Made by a program: the position numbers and the translations under genes. The notes under the pieces are model-generated. The model worked only from the letters and a program-made list of their open reading frames with translations, ran no database searches and was not told where the DNA came from. Positions 1 to 6,355 of a DNA stretch of 6,355 nucleotides are shown in pieces; position 1 is the first letter of the stretch, and each line of letters starts with the position of its first letter. Source of the stretch: a virus (lineage: Duplodnaviria; Heunggongvirae; Uroviricota; Caudoviricetes); IMG/VR virus record IMGVR_UViG_2684622670_000003, positions 1 to 6,355 of that record; one strand, given 5' to 3'.

Positions 1-532
1 CGTCCGCCACCTGATTGCGGACCGCCCACCAGGATAATTCAGCCAGAGATAATTCCCGCTCCTGTGTGCCATTCATTGCGTGACGAATGACGTCAATCAT
101 CCATGCTGACAAGTTTTGGTGAGCAAGTTGCTCAAGTGATTCGGAGGTCTGGTCACGCAACTGGTTGTCGCAGTGCCAGCACAACACCATTGCGCCGGTA
201 CCATAACGGTGAATGACGGTTTCACTGTGGTGATAATCGCCGTGTGGCCACTGGCAGGATTTAATATGGCGCAACAGCCAGTCAGACAATGCACCAGCAC
301 CACCAGCAGCACGAATCACCCGCTCATCGCTGAAAAATGGCAGTAATGATTTATCCTCAGCCAGCGGCTGGCGAACAGCAGGAACGACTCCGGACGGCAG
401 ACCGCGCATGCTTTTCGGTTCCGGCTCCACCAGCACTCGAGGGTTATGAAATACCTGCATGGATTCACGGCCCGGCTTTAGCACCACCAGCCCAAGTTCC
501 GGTACCGGAACAGGTCGAAGTAATACCCGCAC
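1..532 (-). CDS. Cys/His-rich prophage protein, N-terminal ~177 codons only (gene continues past the left edge); possible HNH/zinc-finger-like motif
   Basis: The third minus-strand frame is open from 607 to position 1; it is missing from the ORF track because it has no stop inside the window. GTG start at 532..530 is preceded by GGAGG (541..537) and lies 1 nt after the TAA stop (536..534) of the upstream 92-aa ORF. Translation begins VRVLLRPVPVPELGLVVLKPGRESMQVFHNPRVLVEPEP and contains CQWPHGDYHHSETVIHRYGTGAMVLCWHCDN. Codon usage is enterobacterial (ccg, ctg, ggt). The 71-aa track ORF 97..312 is an out-of-frame artefact inside this gene. Confidence 0.5.
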   Translation of the reverse strand, partial: MRVLLRPVPVPELGLVVLKPGRESMQVFHNPRVLVEPEPKSMRGLPSGVVPAVRQPLAEDKSLLPFFSDERVIRAAGGAGALSDWLLRHIKSCQWPHGDYHHSETVIHRYGTGAMVLCWHCDNQLRDQTSESLEQLAHQNLSAWMIDVIRHAMNGTQERELSLAELSWWAVRNQVAD

Positions 533-533
533 G

Positions 534-812
534 TTACCTCCAGATGCGTTGCTGGAATGTGCGGGACGGACGCGGTGAGCGCTCGGAGTACGGCAGCCTG
601 ACGTAGATTATCCAGTGACGATAATCGAGGCTGAGGGCTTTCCTAAACTCATACCCACGTCTGCGGTAGTTCTGAATCAGCCATTCGGCCTGTTCTTCAG
701 TGCATGGGTCGTGCTGGAACCAGTCAGATTTGAATGCATGAGAACGCCGCCCGTGCCTGCTGGCAAAGACGGCTGAATTATCAGAATTGTGTAGTCTGGA
801 ATTTTGCGCCAT
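534..812 (-). CDS. hypothetical prophage protein, 92 aa
   Basis: ORF track 534..812. ATG at 812 is preceded by GGAGAA (SD-like) about 7 nt upstream. The TAA stop sits inside the GGAGG-TAA-C-GTG junction with the next gene, suggesting translational coupling. The C-terminal 20 residues (RLPYSERSPRPSRTFQQRIWR) are low-complexity, so a frameshifted single larger gene cannot be excluded. Confidence 0.5.
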   Translation of the reverse strand: MAQNSRLHNSDNSAVFASRHGRRSHAFKSDWFQHDPCTEEQAEWLIQNYRRRGYEFRKALSLDYRHWIIYVRLPYSERSPRPSRTFQQRIWR

Positions 813-881
813 CGGTTTTCTCCGGTGGCACAGTGTTACTCAACAGGGGTTCAGCCCTGCGCTGAATTGTAGATGAATTCA

Positions 882-1139
882 CTAATCTTCAAAAGCAGAA
901 AAACCAGCCTTAATCCCAGCTTCTTTCAGAGACGGCAACGATGTGACAAATTCATTTGCACGCAAAATAAAACCATCCGTCACAAGCCCATCCACAAAAT
1001 GAATTAACGCAGCTCCACTCTTCCTTTGTTGAGACTGTAAACATTTAATACGGCAGTGGCTGACAATAGCGCCATTCTCAACGCGCACAGTATAGAGGCC
1101 ATCTTCACTAAAAATTTCACGTAATTCTTCGATTTTCAT
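882..1139 (-). CDS. hypothetical small prophage protein, 85 aa
   Basis: ORF track 882..1142 begins with TTG; I trimmed it to the adjacent ATG at 1139, which has GGAAGGA about 8 nt upstream. Sequence MKIEELREIFSEDGLYTVRVENGAIVSHCRIKC... I do not recognise it. It sits immediately downstream of hok, the position that rem occupies next to hokD in E. coli K-12 Qin (memory of gene order only). Confidence 0.55.
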   Translation of the reverse strand: MKIEELREIFSEDGLYTVRVENGAIVSHCRIKCLQSQQRKSGAALIHFVDGLVTDGFILRANEFVTSLPSLKEAGIKAGFSAFED

Positions 1140-1257
1140 CAACAGAATCCTTCCAGATAAATAGCACTCCCCTGTTCGGGGTCCATCCCTCTTCTCCCTG
1201 CGCGCTACTTAAGTATTTTTGATTCTATTCCGGCACAATCTAAAACTTCAAACGCGT

Positions 1258-1291
1258 TGAAAATAAAAACAAAAACCCGCCGAAGCGGGTT
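1258..1291 (-). terminator. Rho-independent terminator downstream of hok (minus strand)
   Basis: On the minus strand: ACCCGC-uucg-GCGGGU hairpin (plus-strand arms 1275..1280 and 1285..1290, loop 1281..1284) followed directly by TTTTTGTTTTTATTTT. It lies about 70 nt after the hok stop codon. Confidence 0.65.
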
Positions 1292-1359
1292 AAGTGCGGG
1301 TGCGTTGAGGATGCCTGACACATCAGAGGTGGCGAGGGATTTCTCCCCCGCCTGGTCTC

Positions 1360-1515
1360 TTACTCCTCAGGTTCGTAAGCTGTGAAGACAGCGACCTCCG
1401 TCTGGCCGGTTCGGATTCGTACCTCGCAGAGGTCTTTCCTCGTTACCAGTGCCGTCACTATGACGGTTAAACAGATGACGATCAGGGCGATTAACATCGC
1501 CTTTTGCTGCTTCAT
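1360..1515 (-). CDS. hokD: Hok/Gef-family type I toxin (small membrane-depolarising peptide), 51 aa
   Basis: Translation MKQQKAMLIALIVICLTVIVTALVTRKDLCEVRIRTGQTEVAVFTAYEPEE. It has the family layout: short basic N-terminus, one hydrophobic TM helix, then the conserved LCE[IV]R...EVA.F.AYE periplasmic tail. I recognise it as matching E. coli HokD (RelF). ATG at 1515 with AGGAGAAG 6 nt upstream. The ORF-track 70-aa version (to 1572) is an in-frame upstream extension. Confidence 0.85.
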   Translation of the reverse strand: MKQQKAMLIALIVICLTVIVTALVTRKDLCEVRIRTGQTEVAVFTAYEPEE

Positions 1516-1636
1516 AGCCTGCTTCTCCTTGCCTTTCGGCACGTAAGAGGCTAACCTACGTTTGTGAAGCATAGATTGGGCCTCAGATTAATGTTAAACG
1601 TCTTGCAGGACGCGTAATGTTAACTGGGGCTTTTCT

Positions 1637-1672
1637 CTATCTGCCGTTGGTGTTCATGCCCGAGGCAGATAG
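1637..1672 (-). promoter_or_regulatory. Perfect 9-bp inverted repeat (stem-loop) in the predicted hok mRNA leader
   Basis: Plus-strand CTATCTGCC (1637..1645) and GGCAGATAG (1664..1672) are exact reverse complements with an 18-nt loop. Not followed by a T-run on either strand, so it is a structural element rather than a terminator. Confidence 0.4.
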
Positions 1673-1690
1673 CCTCAAGCACCCGCAGCA

Positions 1691-1719
1691 ATTCTACTTA
1701 ACTCACGTCACCTCGCCAA
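1691..1719 (-). promoter_or_regulatory. Candidate sigma70 promoter for hok mRNA
   Basis: Minus strand TTGGCG (1719..1714), 17-nt spacer, TAGAAT (1696..1691). It would place the transcript start near 1684, giving a leader of ~170 nt and a transcript of ~400 nt to the terminator. Sequence-only prediction. Confidence 0.3.
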
Positions 1720-1726
1720 TATAAAA

Positions 1727-1816
1727 TCAATCAGAGAGGTGATTCATAAGAACGATAACAAGACAATAAATTGCCATTACTGCCACAATAGCCAGCGCAC
1801 ATTTCAGAACCAGCAC
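1727..1816 (-). CDS. Candidate 29-aa hydrophobic mini-protein (single predicted TM helix)
   Basis: GTG at 1816 is preceded by GGAGG (1826..1822) with a 5-nt spacer. Translation (M/V)LVLKCALAIVAVMAIYCLVIVLMNHLSD, stop TGA at 1729..1727. It is below the ORF-track size cut-off. A candidate promoter TTGAAG-17-CATATT (1882..1854) lies upstream. Not verified by homology. Confidence 0.3.
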   Translation of the reverse strand: MLVLKCALAIVAVMAIYCLVIVLMNHLSD

Positions 1817-2057
1817 GATGACCTCCCATATTTGACGTACACGCGCATGATTCAATATGTAGCAACCTATTTCTTGCTTCAATATAAAATCAGGTATTGT
1901 TGTATAACTATTTAACTAACTCCCTATCCCCACATCTCAGGCGCTCAACGTCTGTGTTCGGGGCGTTTTTTAATACCTTACCCCCAGCGGCAAATCGAAT
2001 ACACCACCAGCGCCACCGCCATTGCAATTCCTACCGTTGTGAATGCTTCAGGCCAGG

Positions 2058-2573
2058 TCATCGCAAAACATCCTCCGCGCTTATCAGTTCGTTCCGCTTC
2101 AGGTAGTCCATCGCCTTCTCCGGTAATTTGCAGTCTGGATTAGCTTTTTTCAGTTGACTGACCAGTCGTTTAACCCACATTGTTAATTCGCCAACCTGAT
2201 TACTGGATGCTAGTGGATTGTCGGCTTTACCCAGAATGACAGCACAGCAGGCCTCTTTGAGTACCCAATCAACAGCATCTTTCCATGCTCCTGTTTCGAC
2301 TGGTGGGTTCTCACGCTTTACCTGTTCATAAAAGCGCACGGCTTTAACCAGTCCTTCTGATATCACAGGGACTGGCGGGGTAGTGAATAAGGCCTGAATC
2401 TCATAGCCCGGCCTGTCGTTGCCCCCCTCTTTTGTCGGTACATATTTCCAGTCACCAACCCACATCTTCTCCTGAAAGTCCGTAACGCCTTTTTTCACGT
2501 AGCGATATCGCCATGCAACTGGTTTTGCCTGCCCTGCCGTTTCATGCCCTTCCTGATAATTAATCTCGCTCAT
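2058..2573 (-). CDS. hypothetical prophage protein, 171 aa
   Basis: ORF track. ATG at 2573 overlaps the TGA stop of the upstream 58-aa ORF (ATGA overlap). Sequence MSEINYQEGHETAGQAKPVAWRYRYVKKG...; no motif I can name. Confidence 0.6.
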   Translation of the reverse strand: MSEINYQEGHETAGQAKPVAWRYRYVKKGVTDFQEKMWVGDWKYVPTKEGGNDRPGYEIQALFTTPPVPVISEGLVKAVRFYEQVKRENPPVETGAWKDAVDWVLKEACCAVILGKADNPLASSNQVGELTMWVKRLVSQLKKANPDCKLPEKAMDYLKRNELISAEDVLR

Positions 2574-2746
2574 TCATCGCCCCACTCATCACAATATGCT
2601 TCGACCGGAGTTTTTCCTGCTTCGTAGTCATCACGCCAGGCTTCAGCATCAGCAGCACTTCCACCACGTAACTCTGCATAGTCTATTAACAGTTCATGCC
2701 ATTCTTCAAAACTGACGTTGTATTTAGTTGAACCAAAATCAGCCAT
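2570..2746 (-). CDS. small highly acidic protein, 58 aa (not in ORF track)
   Basis: My own translation of the minus strand: MADFGSTKYNVSFEEWHELLIDYAELRGGSAADAEAWRDDYEAGKTPVEAYCDEWGDE. ATG at 2746 with GAGGAAG about 7 nt upstream. The start overlaps the stop of the 60-aa ORF (ATGGCTGA) and the stop overlaps the start of the 171-aa ORF. 16 Asp/Glu against 4 Lys/Arg. Confidence 0.5.
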   Translation of the reverse strand: MADFGSTKYNVSFEEWHELLIDYAELRGGSAADAEAWRDDYEAGKTPVEAYCDEWGDE

Positions 2747-2921
2747 TTTGTTCTTCCTCTTCGTCTTTTATTTCGTGATATGAGTAATTGCAGTAGTTAA
2801 AGAAAATTTCTTTTGCTTCGTCATGAATTTCATCAGGTGTTGCGTCATCGTCCACTTCGAATACATCCTCAAAATCTCCACCAGCTATTCCCGTTTCAAT
2901 AATTATTTTGAATTTTCGCAT
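2739..2921 (-). CDS. small highly acidic protein, 60 aa
   Basis: ORF track. MRKFKIIIETGIAGGDFEDVFEVDDDATPDEIHDEAKEIFFNYCNYSYHEIKDEEEEQNG; 19 Asp/Glu against 5 Lys/Arg. ATG at 2921 has a weak SD. AT-rich coding sequence compared with its neighbours. Confidence 0.5.
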   Translation of the reverse strand: MRKFKIIIETGIAGGDFEDVFEVDDDATPDEIHDEAKEIFFNYCNYSYHEIKDEEEEQNG

Positions 2922-3014
2922 TTCACTACCGCCATTTCGAACGGCCTCCTGATGTTCTGAGGGTGCAGAAATCCCTCCGGTTAAGGATTAAATTTTTAAC
3001 AGTGCTAAATTTAA

Positions 3015-3371
3015 TTATTCAGTTCTTGATTTTGCCGCCCTGCGTATCCGCGCTTTCGCGTTACGCTCAATCTGAATTAGCTTTTCTATATTTCTCCGCC
3101 TTTCCCGCTCCTCCTGGCGCAAGAGCCTTACATCATCTGCCAGTCTGGTTTCTCTTTTCGCCACAGAGAGCATCCAGTCAAATGGCTCCACAACTGCACC
3201 GCAGATTTTACAGCGGACCTGACGCTCTTTTTCGTCAACACGGACAGAGGCGTGATGACAATATGGTCTTTCCGATGGCTCATAAAGAAAATTAACCTGA
3301 TTACGTGGGTCATCCTCTTTTACCGGAAATAAAACAATATTACTTAACTCATCTTCTGGTTTTATTTCCAT
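3015..3371 (-). CDS. hypothetical protein, 118 aa, with a Cys/His zinc-ribbon-like motif and a basic, probably coiled-coil C-terminus
   Basis: ORF track 3015..3428 begins with GTG; I trimmed it to ATG at 3371, which has AAGGAGAGGAG immediately upstream. Contains CHH...CKIC, then a Lys/Arg/Glu-rich tail (RLLRQEERERRRNIEKLIQIERNAKARIRRAAKSRTE). Confidence 0.6.
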   Translation of the reverse strand: MEIKPEDELSNIVLFPVKEDDPRNQVNFLYEPSERPYCHHASVRVDEKERQVRCKICGAVVEPFDWMLSVAKRETRLADDVRLLRQEERERRRNIEKLIQIERNAKARIRRAAKSRTE

Positions 3372-3428
3372 GCTCCTCTCCTTTGATGCGAATGCCAGCG
3401 ATAATTGAAGCCTGATAGCTAATTTCAC

Positions 3429-3851
3429 TCACAGTACCGCCTCCTGAAAATTACCCTGATAAAACGACAATATGCGCTGCATAACTTCGCTCTTCCGACA
3501 CTCGCGACAGATTATATTCAGGCGCCTGTCGTAGCGACGTATTTCTCCATCTGGTAATGACCATATAAGGTCAGGATCAACCACAACCAGTTTCTTTGAC
3601 TTTGCTTTCGACATCTTTTCGATGGCTTTCATCCAGTCCTTACGTGCCTGCTCTGAAGGAAATATTCCATACCCTGAGCCATATACAACACCACTGGCTA
3701 CCAGCTCTTTCGTCAGAACTTCTATCAGATGTCTCGTCGCCCCGGTTTCATTTTCCAGTTGTTTACGCGTTTTCCGCCCATCCCTGCGTACCAGTTCCAC
3801 AATGCGCGCCTTCACTTCTTCCCGCTCTTCCTGTGTAAATACTCTTGCCAT
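3429..3851 (-). CDS. hypothetical protein, 140 aa, N-terminal winged-helix-like segment
   Basis: ORF track 3429..3866 begins with TTG; I trimmed it to ATG at 3851, which has GGAGG 5 nt upstream. It starts 15 nt after the stop of the 256-aa gene. Sequence MARVFTQEEREEVKARIVELVRRDGRKTRKQLENETGATRHLIEVLTKELVASGVV... Confidence 0.6.
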   Translation of the reverse strand: MARVFTQEEREEVKARIVELVRRDGRKTRKQLENETGATRHLIEVLTKELVASGVVYGSGYGIFPSEQARKDWMKAIEKMSKAKSKKLVVVDPDLIWSLPDGEIRRYDRRLNIICRECRKSEVMQRILSFYQGNFQEAVL

Positions 3852-3866
3852 AAGTGCCTCCGGCAA

Positions 3867-4637
3867 TCACTTTTCCGACACAATACGACTGGAAGAATCG
3901 ACAATCTGTCGGACAATATCCCGGTGCTTGTTCAGCTCCCGCAACGCGGCGCAGACTCGCTCCCACTTCTGGACATGACTTTTCGCCCGACGCAGTTCGC
4001 GGTTTGCCATATGCAGCGATGGTAAAACCAGGTCATCCGCTCGCGTTTCGGTAAACGATGGTAGCGACTGCACAATGCCCGCCACAGTTTCTGTTTTAAT
4101 ATCTTCCTGTGTTGCCGCTTCCTGTACTGGTAACGCAACACCTGCTGGCTGAGGAAAGGCCTTACCATCATTTTCCGTTACCGGCACGGATTTCGGCTCT
4201 GCTGGTAACTTATCGCCCGGCATGCAGTAACGAAATTTACCGTTCTGATTAACGCGTGCCAGCCGCCCCGTTGCGGTTACCACCGCCAGCGTGGAAGCAA
4301 CCTTGCGAGTACTGACACCGAACTTACCCGCCAGTTCCTCACACGTTTTAGCCCCCTCCTGACCGATAAACTCAATCATCATGTCTGCGGTAACTTTTTG
4401 TTCGACCTCCCCGGTCAGCATATCCTGTGCTTCAGATTTTACTGGCCGCTCTTCGGTTACCCGGGATTCACCTTCGCCAGCCAGAAACCAGGTGTGACCA
4501 GTTTTATCAACGACGCCATTTCTTTTGAGTTCCCACAGCTCGTTCAGCACTTCTTCACTACTGATATCAAGTCGCGTAGCCAGTTCTACCGACGTGGCTT
4601 TTCCCATCGCTTTCAGTGCGTCAAAAACAGTCTCCAT
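3867..4637 (-). CDS. hypothetical prophage protein, 256 aa, with two tandem winged-helix-like segments and an acidic/Pro-rich linker
   Basis: ORF track. ATG at 4637 with GGGAGG 6 nt upstream, 32 nt after the P-like stop. Two similar segments (VELATRLDISSEEVLNELWELKRNGVV... and CEELAGKFGVSTRKVASTLAVVTATGRLARV...) suggest duplicated DNA-binding-type folds. Family name not verified. Confidence 0.7.
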   Translation of the reverse strand: METVFDALKAMGKATSVELATRLDISSEEVLNELWELKRNGVVDKTGHTWFLAGEGESRVTEERPVKSEAQDMLTGEVEQKVTADMMIEFIGQEGAKTCEELAGKFGVSTRKVASTLAVVTATGRLARVNQNGKFRYCMPGDKLPAEPKSVPVTENDGKAFPQPAGVALPVQEAATQEDIKTETVAGIVQSLPSFTETRADDLVLPSLHMANRELRRAKSHVQKWERVCAALRELNKHRDIVRQIVDSSSRIVSEK

Positions 4638-4669
4638 AAATTTCCTCCCGGTAAAAATTACTTCTCAAC

Positions 4670-5335
4670 TCAAACAAACCCAGCCGCTTTCCGGCGTTCA
4701 TATTCCTGTTTCAGCAACTCAATTGGCGTTGGTCCCAACGGGCGTTTTGGTGCCGCCAGTTGTCGCCGTACTGGCGGAACGCTCAGGCCGTTACTAACAT
4801 GCTTTGCCCATTTCGTCAGCTGCCGTTCTGCAAGCCGTTTTAATTCCCCTTCGGTCATCTGGCGTTCAATCCCCTTTGAACGCATCTCGAGGCAAATGTG
4901 ATACAGCACAGGCTGAGACCACGGGTACTTATCACTTCCGTCGTATCGCCAGGACTCATTGCGCCAGCGGCGGTACTCCTCCATCACAGCATCCACCGTC
5001 AGACCAAATGGATTGGCCCCGCTTTCCGAAATCAGCGCCACAAACTCAGCCAGGTCCGGAGGCCATGTTTCACCCGCCCGGCAGCGGTCCATGCACTCGC
5101 GGCAGACCTGCCGGATTTGCTGCTCAGTCATCGCGCCAATCTGTGCAATCCAGAGCTTCGAAGGTGCGGCCCCGTTCTTCTGGGTCCAGCGGTTCGAATA
5201 AACCTCCCCCATGAGTTCCCACAGCTTCCAGGCCGTTTCCGTCGCTGATAAATCCGTTTTCACGTTCCCACTGCTCACGTGCTGCCCGAATTTCCTGAAC
5301 TGCCCGTGATGCGGTGCCACCTGGTGCTGCTGCAT
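4670..5335 (-). CDS. phage replication protein P-like (helicase loader)
   Basis: ORF track. The C-terminal two-thirds resemble lambda P as I remember it (PDLAEFVALI..., YPWSQPVLYHICLEM..., LTEGELKRLAERQL...). ATG at 5335 has GGGGG 6 nt upstream and a TAA one codon further up. The start is uncertain because the first ~70 codons overlap the O-like ORF in another frame; internal ATGs at 5212 and 5131 are alternatives. Confidence 0.6.
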   Translation of the reverse strand: MQQHQVAPHHGQFRKFGQHVSSGNVKTDLSATETAWKLWELMGEVYSNRWTQKNGAAPSKLWIAQIGAMTEQQIRQVCRECMDRCRAGETWPPDLAEFVALISESGANPFGLTVDAVMEEYRRWRNESWRYDGSDKYPWSQPVLYHICLEMRSKGIERQMTEGELKRLAERQLTKWAKHVSNGLSVPPVRRQLAAPKRPLGPTPIELLKQEYERRKAAGFV

Positions 5336-6164
5336 GGTTTACCCCCTTGCTGACTGGTTTAACCTGCGCCCTGACGTGATTTACGTGACGGGCGAATTTC
5401 TGCTCCCACTGAATCTGCGTAAACACTTTCCCCTCCGCTGTCCAGTAGTCCCGGAAGGCGGCAAGTTCAGCAGGTGTAAATTCTGTCTCCGGCAAAGCCA
5501 TCCCCCACAACGCAGCCCGTCGTCGAAAATCCCGTGACGGATACCAGCTATCGGTCATCGGAAATTTTCCGATGGGTTCGCTCAGACCATCCAGGAATAC
5601 AGGGGGTACAGCCTGTAACGACAAAACTTCCCGCTCACTGGTCGGAGCACTCTCGCGTGCGTTATGTGTGGGGTTTAGATCTTTGGGTTCCTTTGGGTTC
5701 CGTGATCCGTTTTTGGGTGTCTTTGATGGAAAATTTGGGTGTCTTTGGTTATTTTCCATGCAGCTAAGAGATCCGTTTTTGGGTCTGTTTTGTGCTGAAA
5801 CATAACCATTTTCGGTACTGTTTTTATTAACAGCACCAATTTTACTCACCTTTAAAGACTCCCGTTTTTGGGTGTATTCAGGCTCGGCAACGCTTTCTTC
5901 TACACCGATAAGTCGGTACACCACAATTTGCTTTGTTCTGCCTTTTCTCTCACCGGTATCAACAATTAACCCAATCTCCATCAGGTGTCGTAAGCTGTCC
6001 TGCACAGTCTTTTTGTTCAGTTCCGTTACTTCTGCCAGTGCAGATACAGACGGGTATGCACACAAATCGGCACCGCACATATCAGCAAGCCAGGTCAATA
6101 CAGACTTACTGGATGAACTGCCGGTTTTCACCTTTTTAGCCCATCGTAGTGCATCGATACTCAT
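5124..6164 (-). CDS. phage replication initiator, O-like (N-terminal HTH DNA-binding domain, iteron-encoding linker, C-terminal DnaT/replisome-organiser-like domain)
   Basis: ORF track 5124..6239 begins with TTG; I trimmed it to ATG at 6164, which has GGGG 5 nt upstream. The N-terminus MSIDALRWAKKVKTGSSSSKSVLTWLADMCGADLCAYPSVSALAEVTELNKKTVQDSLRHLMEIGLIVD is HTH-like. The linker is rich in PKNG repeats encoded by the iterons. The C-terminal segment TPAELAAFRDYWTAEGKVFTQIQWEQKFARHV is typical of phage O/DnaT-like replication proteins. It is followed by a P-like gene. Confidence 0.65.
   Translation of the reverse strand: MSIDALRWAKKVKTGSSSSKSVLTWLADMCGADLCAYPSVSALAEVTELNKKTVQDSLRHLMEIGLIVDTGERKGRTKQIVVYRLIGVEESVAEPEYTQKRESLKVSKIGAVNKNSTENGYVSAQNRPKNGSLSCMENNQRHPNFPSKTPKNGSRNPKEPKDLNPTHNARESAPTSEREVLSLQAVPPVFLDGLSEPIGKFPMTDSWYPSRDFRRRAALWGMALPETEFTPAELAAFRDYWTAEGKVFTQIQWEQKFARHVNHVRAQVKPVSKGVNHAAAPGGTASRAVQEIRAAREQWERENGFISDGNGLEAVGTHGGGLFEPLDPEERGRTFEALDCTDWRDD
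5681..5880. repeat. Iteron-like direct repeats inside the O-like gene (putative prophage origin of replication)
   Basis: Plus-strand copies: GATCCGTTTTTGGGTGTCTTTG (5704..5725), AAAATTTGGGTGTCTTTGG (5730..5748), GATCCGTTTTTGGGTCTGTTTTG (5769..5791), CTCCCGTTTTTGGGTGTATTC (5859..5879), plus tandem CTTTGGGTTC x2 (5681..5700). An AT-richer stretch (about 5800..5860) lies between copies 3 and 4. Lambda ori likewise sits inside gene O. Confidence 0.5.
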
Positions 6165-6355
6165 ACGAACCCCTGGCAGACATTTGTTTATCTGCAAAGT
6201 AATATTGATATTGCTGACGATACGCATGCTTGAAAGCAATAGCTTTTTCTATAAGCTCGTCAGTCTCACGTTCCACAACAGATGGATCCGCAAAAAGCAG
6301 CCCGGACTCCACCACATCGCCATATTCTTTGTTTAACCCGGCGATCATGTACGTA
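6136..6355 (-). CDS. hypothetical protein, C-terminal part (frame open to the right edge of the window)
   Basis: ORF track 6136..6348 (70 aa from an internal ATG), but the frame stays open to position 6355, so the true start is probably outside the window. The stop overlaps the O-like start by about 29 nt. Sequence ...MIAGLNKEYGDVVESGLLFADPSVVERETDELIEKAIAFKHAYRQQYQYYFADKQMSARGSYEYRCTTMG does not resemble lambda cII as I remember it. Confidence 0.4.
   Translation of the reverse strand, partial: TYMIAGLNKEYGDVVESGLLFADPSVVERETDELIEKAIAFKHAYRQQYQYYFADKQMSARGSYEYRCTTMG

Follow-up and report, generated by a model that had tools for sequence, protein, structure and literature searches.

Comparative evidence for a small membrane peptide gene directly upstream of hok in prophages of Escherichia and Shigella

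We analyzed a mini open reading frame (mini-ORF) on the minus strand of a 6,355-nucleotide (nt) stretch of DNA from a member of the Caudoviricetes (IMG/VR record IMGVR_UViG_2684622670_000003, positions 1 to 6,355; hereafter the window), in which it lies directly upstream of the toxin gene hok. The hok/sok locus is the textbook type I toxin–antitoxin system, and E. coli very commonly carries it on prophages. Comparison with related loci indicates that the mini-ORF is a translated gene under purifying selection at the level of its amino acids, and on balance we favor the reading that it encodes a single-pass inner-membrane peptide, carried as a prophage accessory gene and transcribed into hok. 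The frame, which had been singled out in a preliminary description made from the sequence of the window, and its putative signals are as follows:

1727..1816, minus strand, mini-ORF with GTG at 1816-1814, 29 sense codons (MLVLKCALAIVAVMAIYCLVIVLMNHLSD), and TGA at 1729-1727.
1822..1827, minus strand, Shine–Dalgarno sequence (SD) GGGAGG, separated from the GTG by the 5-nt spacer TCATC.
1832..1842, minus strand, conserved motif GTGTACGTCAA of the 5' untranslated region (UTR), detected by alignment of the flank types and by BLAST matches that break off at window position 1842 (query position 94).
1854..1859, minus strand, candidate -10 element CATATT of the mini-ORF promoter.
1877..1882, minus strand, candidate -35 element TTGAAG of the same promoter, 17 nt away from the -10 element.

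A set of 93 loci holding this region was compiled from RefSeq E. coli genomes, phage records, IMG/VR, and species-representative genomes. Start codon, 29 codons, and stop codon were kept in all of them (93/93) without a single indel, the only change of the stop being one TGA to TAA. The 21 DNA alleles were joined by a minimum spanning tree with 43 substitutions, namely 24 synonymous, 19 non-synonymous, and none involving a stop, while a neutral simulation that kept the observed proportion of transitions to transversions predicted 13.3, 28.3, and 1.4, respectively (P=0.00045). Read in the five other frames, which include the plus-strand ORF of 58 amino acids (aa) favored by some annotators, the same tree revealed only 9-15 synonymous changes and up to 12 changes involving a stop codon. 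Since the synonymous excess is specific to one frame, non-coding constraint cannot be its source. Distant alleles were added from a hok-anchored metagenome sample and from an exhaustive profile search. With these divergent alleles included, 42 synonymous, 48 non-synonymous, and 0 stop changes were counted against 28, 61, and 0.6 expected (P=0.0016), and among nine divergent alleles all 36 pairwise ratios of non-synonymous to synonymous divergence (dN/dS) were below 1 (0.10-0.80), with dS reaching more than 1. Divergent alleles varied in length by whole codons only (-1, +1, +2, and +5). The deduced peptides form a family of 28-34 residues with the conserved core (A/G)(I/V)YCL...LM(D/E/N)(R/H)L(S/G)(D/N). 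The preliminary description had staked its case on conservation of the frame and a synonymous bias among relatives; the frame is conserved and the bias is present, so the proposal passed this test.

Hypothetical coding sequences (CDSs) have been deposited on the strand opposite the mini-ORF, namely at 1411-1700 of locus L002 (phage HannyBb) and at 90749-91021 of the Shigella flexneri plasmid pWR100. These annotated frames carry no coding signature, and stop codons accumulate in them among relatives.

Every sequence detail previously given for the mini-ORF (GTG at 1816, an SD 5 nt before it, here read as GGGAGG, and 29 codons) was correct. The expectation of a single transmembrane helix was likewise borne out: a helix is predicted for residues 6-24, the best 19-residue window, with a Kyte–Doolittle mean of 2.97 and a grand average of hydropathicity (GRAVY) of 2.03 for the peptide, and it is flanked by the short ends MLVLK and NHLSD. 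The peptide would insert into the inner membrane, in most alleles probably with the Lys-bearing N-terminal end in the cytoplasm and the acidic tail in the periplasm. At the other end of the gene, the TGA stop adjoins the hok promoter, as described before, with 7 nt remaining to the hok -35 element.

Upstream of the mini-ORF, the loci showed at least four unrelated types of flanks (types A to D among them) because different phage modules precede it, and similarity starts just before its -35 element; after this promoter region, homology among the flank types resumes at the 5'-UTR motif. Across seven divergent promoter types, the -10 element CATATT was identical in 7/7, and the -35 element (TTGAAG, TTGAAT, TTGAGA, TTGAGT, or TTGCTG) was 73% identical versus 40% for the 17-nt spacer, the length of which is fixed. 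All flank types and divergent alleles possess an SD reading GGGAGG, AGGAGG, or AGGAGA, and the start codon is kept too, as GTG or, in a few alleles, ATG. The conserved signals suggest a sigma-70-type promoter TTGA(A/G)N-17-CATATT and a leader that is about 30 nt long and contains a strong SD. In flank type B, an additional in-frame GTG occurs one codon upstream, only 2 nt from the SD. A longer form of 51 aa from the TTG at 1882 was rejected, as its upstream part is unconserved and the flanks in types B-D are unrelated. As a separate observation, the promoter can be read as TTGAA-N14-nCnCATAT in the window (1854-1882, minus strand) and at the equivalent positions of L053, L081, L179, L180, and L181, the C of CATATT being invariant in the seven aligned promoter types; the sigma-32 consensus is CTTGAAA-N13-15-CCCCATnT, which the mini-ORF promoter presumably resembles.

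A terminator scan revealed no minus-strand terminator between 1727 and 1291, so that transcripts of the mini-ORF should run on to the terminator of hok and reach a predicted length of about 580 nt. They would thereby cross the hok promoter and yield 5'-extended hok mRNAs, and hok would retain a promoter of its own. The hok locus of the window is complete and consists of the following features:

1691..1719, minus strand, hok promoter TTGGCG-17-TAGAAT (TTGGCG at 1719-1714, TAGAAT at 1696-1691), identified by promoter scan and recurring in L053, L081, and L029.
1510..1684, minus strand, leader of the hok mRNA, which contains the target of the Sok antisense RNA and, at 1572, the start of mok (matched by Rfam RF01794 with 113 bits, E=6e-26).
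1360-1572, minus strand, mok frame overlapping hok.
1360..1515, minus strand, hok CDS of 51 aa, HokD/HokW type (Pfam HOK_GEF, E=3e-23).
1274..1291, minus strand, intrinsic terminator of the hok transcript and the first one downstream of the mini-ORF (terminator scan).

The 5' end of the hok mRNA lies at about 1684, just downstream of its promoter, where the Rfam sok/hok-leader match begins, and the deduced Hok is identical to RefSeq HokD WP_000813254.1 of a neighboring genome.

The mini-ORF and its signals make up a portable cassette of about 165 bp, which is located exactly between the preceding gene and the -35 element of a hokD/hokW-type hok/sok locus, spanning from its own -35 element to about 10 nt past its stop codon and ending exactly at the hok -35 element. 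SD and ORF were found in 1899/5426 complete E. coli genomes (about 35%) and the peptide gene in four phage genomes, so that some lambdoid phages carry it, with mEp460, HannyBb, and Tritos among the carriers. In phage 933W and in a quarter to half of the hok loci, the cassette is absent and the preceding ORF is joined directly to the hok promoter. At the junction of the 933W type, a different small ORF (27 aa, MTWPEAF...) abuts the homologous hok promoter, which in 933W itself is that of hokW. In K-12, relBE occupies the position of the cassette, and no copy was found in the 10 kb around hokD. When 80 metagenome loci were selected solely because their Hok protein is identical, a family member was present in 25, and in 10 of these 80 (L095, L106, and eight similar ones), the ORF is cut to its last six codons behind queH, which marks a recombination breakpoint inside the ORF. 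The remnant reads ATG GAT CAC CTT TCT GAT TGA, with AGGAG 7 nt before the ATG, about 60 nt ahead of the hok -10 element.

Every divergent family member with readable context directly precedes a HOK_GEF gene (P0032, P0035, and P0030). On the Shigella virulence plasmid pINV (124 Shigella plasmid records), promoter, SD, and a 29-codon frame starting with ATG are intact about 290 bp upstream of icsP, and downstream of the intact ORF hok has decayed to its promoter and a leader remnant of about 90 nt:

L181 1546-1701 (S. flexneri pWR501 220088-220243; pWR100 CP037924 complement 90908-90997), divergent intact copy with ATG start, MLVLKGTLAIAAVMTIYCLIVVLMERFSD.

In three more loci (L015, L036, and L092), the ORF is present although hok is not intact, and hok has a complete promoter of its own in every locus. 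These comparisons indicate that hok does not need the cassette and that the cassette outlives hok. The co-regulation with hok that had been proposed is therefore not upheld: most loci with the identical Hok lack the peptide gene, and the gene survives the decay of hok. Members of the family turned up in Escherichia and Shigella only. A scan of species-representative genomes resulted in six loci, three in Escherichia/Shigella records and three on short contigs in metagenome-assembled genomes labelled as other genera, which we take to be mis-binned, and the exhaustive profile search against 1.84 billion proteins resulted in only 17 matches.

In the reading that we favor, the peptide would act in the membrane on its own, as small membrane proteins of the accessory (moron) type in prophages do. 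Several points weigh against it. This role is arrived at by exclusion, and the case for transcription and translation of the mini-ORF is a comparative one. The candidate promoter scores 8/12 to the consensus, which is under the scan cut-off of 9/12; L176 has a poor promoter with a poor -10 element, and L177 has none, its copy carrying a perfect AAGGAGG-ATG directly behind the preceding small ORF. Differential RNA sequencing (dRNA-seq) of S. flexneri M90T grown in TSB at 37 C to an optical density of 0.3 revealed zero transcription starts on either strand of pWR100 90,800-91,099 (PMC7132871 Table S3). The predicted promoter of the pINV copy would fire at about 91,027 of pWR100, so it is not strongly active in that replicon and condition. 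This region of pINV is presumably silenced by H-NS. The gene is also dispensable, being deleted or cut to six codons in some lineages, and purifying selection on it is moderate (dN/dS of about 0.35-0.5). Finally, the events on the spanning tree are not fully independent, since the sequences are related and recombine; the pairwise dN/dS values of the deeply diverged alleles are unaffected by this.

It is highly improbable that the frame is open merely by chance within a conserved spacer that codes for nothing, the DNA being either young or constrained by the hok promoter. In favor of such a spacer, 24/90 columns in the ORF are variable, similar to the neighboring non-coding hok promoter, and the ORF is unannotated in the sampled RefSeq rows, with some annotators calling an antisense ORF instead. 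However, the divergent alleles, with dS of about 1, dN/dS of 0.1-0.4, and indels of whole codons only, argue against it, as do the SD and start codon kept across unrelated flanks and the stops that accumulate in the antisense frames. Only slightly less improbable is that the frame serves as a regulatory upstream element of hok, with transcription and translation of the short frame occluding the hok promoter or producing 5'-extended mRNAs that fold or are activated differently. Between the stop codon and the hok -35 element there are 7 nt and no terminator, and the position and orientation of the cassette relative to hok are constant even at dS >1, as such an element would have it. Yet selection acts on the amino acids and not on a mere open frame, as seen from the synonymous excess, the conservative replacements, and the conserved C-terminal motif; moreover, the gene is intact where hok has decayed or is missing, hok has its own complete promoter in every locus, and most loci with identical Hok do without the cassette.

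Size and composition had also led to the proposal of a type I toxin like TisB, Ldr, and DinQ, which would be restrained by an antisense RNA; we regard this as unlikely. With 29 aa and a GRAVY of 2.03, the peptide falls among the small (<60 aa), hydrophobic, membrane-targeted products typical of type I toxins, it lies beside hok, a proven member, and its near-invariant weak GTG start is compatible with tight control. In addition, the window contains a promoter-like site on the plus strand, TTAACT(1698)-18-TAAAAT(1727), which overlaps the hok promoter and could, together with a strand-specific terminator-like hairpin, yield an antisense RNA of 240 nt that ends at 1947-1975 and spans the whole mini-ORF mRNA:

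1947..1975, plus strand, hairpin with T-run, terminator-like on this strand only and present in flank type A only (scan and alignment).

The strand specificity arises from G-U pairs, in place of which the minus strand has C-A mismatches. The plus strand has no known gene at the hairpin, which is kept, with variation, among type A flanks. Against an antisense RNA, however, the plus-strand -10 element turns into TGAAAT in most loci, losing its key A, and the hairpin is missing from flank types B, C, and D, which represent the majority; scans of L053, L081, and L029 (types B, C, and D) revealed neither an antisense promoter nor a terminator. The mini-ORF mRNA (1848-1700) folds no better than shuffled sequences (z=-0.82; antisense strand, z of -0.5) and in the centroid structure no stable helix includes its SD, which leaves the ribosome-binding site unsequestered. 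Regulation by Sok in trans was rejected, as complementarity to the translation-initiation region was at shuffle level (P=0.45), and no other segment of the window showed complementarity to the mini-ORF beyond chance. Rfam resulted in no match at 1700-2000, and no toxin, defense, or phage family was matched in Pfam, NCBIfam, PHROGs, or PADLOC. No antisense start was detected at the pINV copy by dRNA-seq of M90T (PMC7132871). Altogether, no cis-antisense or divergent small RNA (sRNA) gene with its own promoter and terminator was found, and since no antitoxin RNA gene accompanies the peptide, it is probably not a classical RNA-controlled toxin. Of the proposed toxin class, size and composition thus hold, and the antisense RNA, the pairing with Sok, and an SD-hiding fold do not.

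Rather unlikely, too, is that the peptide and Hok form a two-peptide membrane module, in which the peptide would be a helper or brake of pore formation or insertion by Hok, or that the peptide is a toxin controlled without an RNA antitoxin, e.g., by a stress-dependent promoter. If true, either would give the best-studied type I system a novel layout and would explain why alleles with dS >1 still sit exactly at the hok -35 element.

The preliminary description had further drawn attention to an exact 13-bp repeat, CAATATAAAATCA, present twice on the plus strand (1717-1729 and 1880-1892), each copy ending on the minus strand in the TTG of a -35 element. This is the case:

1880..1892, unstranded, upstream copy (minus strand TGATTTTATATTG), the TTG of which opens the mini-ORF -35 element TTGAAG; found in exact form in part of flank type A only.
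1717..1729, unstranded, downstream copy, in which TGA is the stop codon of the mini-ORF and TTG opens the hok -35 element TTGGCG.

Aligned locally, the two promoter segments score higher than 99.8% of shuffles (P=0.002), and the window holds further exact repeats of 13-15 nt (D7 and D8). Past the 13 bases, no homology was found on either side (flank-only P=0.84, downstream-only P=0.49 against shuffles). A larger duplication behind the repeat was therefore rejected. The 13-mer is exact in about 9/93 loci, with 10-12 of 13 positions matching in close relatives and the variants TGATTTCATATTG and TGATTTCACATTG of the downstream copy in other loci. Most loci belong to the three other flank types, and in these nothing but the ATTG preceding the -35 element is shared. 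After comparison of the 16 nt ahead of both -35 hexamers in the 93 loci, the shared upstream element or operator that had been suggested was rejected: a conserved operator would not be exact in so few loci and absent from the majority, and the downstream copy is constrained anyway, as it contains the mini-ORF stop and the hok -35 element. The simplest reading is that the repeat represents microhomology at a recombination junction, local to one flank type. Overall, what stands of the preliminary description is a real coding gene with promoter-like and ribosome-binding signals of its own, and what finds no support is the operator, the co-regulation with hok, and the control as a toxin by RNA.

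In the wider setting, the window covers the replication/nin-like part of a lambdoid prophage with all genes on the minus strand, in the order O-like gene with iterons, DUF1627 and DUF977 genes, small genes, hok, and DUF968 gene. The iteron-like direct repeats (GATCCGTTTTTGGGTGTCTTT and TTTGGGTGTCTTTG, three times each) lie at 5682-5879 within an ORF of 371 aa (6239-5124, minus strand) and are probably the lambdoid replication origin inside the O-like gene. A second unannotated mini-ORF for a one-helix peptide (27 aa, MTWPEAFTTVGIAMAVALVVYSICRWG) was found at 1978-2061 on the minus strand, with its ATG overlapping the stop codon of a 171-aa ORF (ATGA); in related loci, it occurs in more than 20 protein variants, one with an in-frame deletion of four codons, it directly precedes the hokW promoter in 933W, and it weakly matches PHROG 4612. 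Around the 3' end of the hok mRNA, a sub-threshold Rfam match to isrK (24.9 bits, E=0.028) covers the mRNA end and the terminator (1270-1351, minus strand). A 16-nt inverted repeat (88% complementary) at 1334-1349 and 2962-2977 connects the 3' region of the hok mRNA with sequence of the same transcript strand located 1.6 kb further upstream, probably by chance.

Neither the 29-aa nor the 51-aa form of the peptide matched Pfam, NCBIfam, or PHROGs. Known families (Pfam, PHROGs, NCBIfam, PADLOC, and PDB sequences) gave noise at the level of composition only, e.g., ATP synthase c with 16-18 bits versus a cut-off of 116, and were rejected. The same applies to a degenerate copy of Hok, as BLASTP against the neighboring Hok resulted in nothing at E<=100, and to YnfS of K-12, another 29-aa Qin protein, the sequence of which is unrelated. 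In the literature searched, outside of which most subscription journals lay, no description of the peptide or of the arrangement was found. The arrangement had been called undescribed, which holds as far as papers are concerned, but the ORF itself is already listed: it is entered in the GenBank records of REL606 (E. coli B) and BL21(DE3), under ACT43394.1/ACT39199.1, as a hypothetical or membrane protein of 29 aa, and nr contains a MULTISPECIES entry. RefSeq leaves it unannotated in all sampled rows, and for the pWR100 copy, Prokka calls a hypothetical protein and RAST the antisense ORF instead.

Beside hok, about 35% of complete E. coli genomes carry a second membrane peptide gene that is maintained by selection, and it is present in BL21(DE3) and REL606 as well. 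This gene is absent from curated family libraries and mostly unannotated, with some annotators calling the wrong strand. If expressed, it would add a new family of small membrane proteins to widely used laboratory and pathogenic strains, and its 5'-extended hok transcripts would matter for measuring hok expression in such prophages. The claim is a modest one, namely that of a putative new family of a familiar kind, restricted to Escherichia/Shigella and made up of one-helix peptides of 28-34 residues.

Among known systems, short one-helix type I toxins of E. coli are TisB (29 aa), DinQ (27 aa), ZorO (29 aa), Ldr (35 aa), and ShoB (26 aa), each accompanied by an antisense or divergent sRNA gene of its own and encoded on a long, structured mRNA that has to be processed. 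The peptide resembles them in its roughly 30 residues, its one helix with short polar ends, its chromosomal or prophage location, and its narrow host range, but the mini-ORF differs in having no conserved RNA gene, a leader of only about 30 nt, an exposed strong SD, and no sequence similarity to any of them. With the Hok/Gef family (PF01848; R1 hok/sok, Qin hokD, and 933W/Sp5 hokW), it shares its adjoining position, orientation, and occurrence in lambdoid prophages, as well as the N-terminal layout of Hok, a Lys-containing end followed by a helix at residues 6-24. In contrast to Hok/Gef, it shows no sequence similarity, periplasmic domain, mok-like overlap, Sok-like antisense, or tac/fbi-type mRNA architecture. 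Phage morons likewise have their own promoter inside a phage operon and are present or absent at a gene boundary between otherwise collinear phages; unlike in a moron, no terminator of its own directly follows the mini-ORF, which shares that of hok. One-helix proteins of up to 50 aa have been catalogued in E. coli K-12 via conservation, tagging, and ribosome profiling, and the mini-ORF lay outside these surveys because it is absent from the hokD locus of K-12. Like the small membrane proteins of K-12, the putative peptide has one helix, fewer than 50 residues, and a good SD, was missed by standard annotation, and revealed purifying selection together with a conserved start, stop, and SD.

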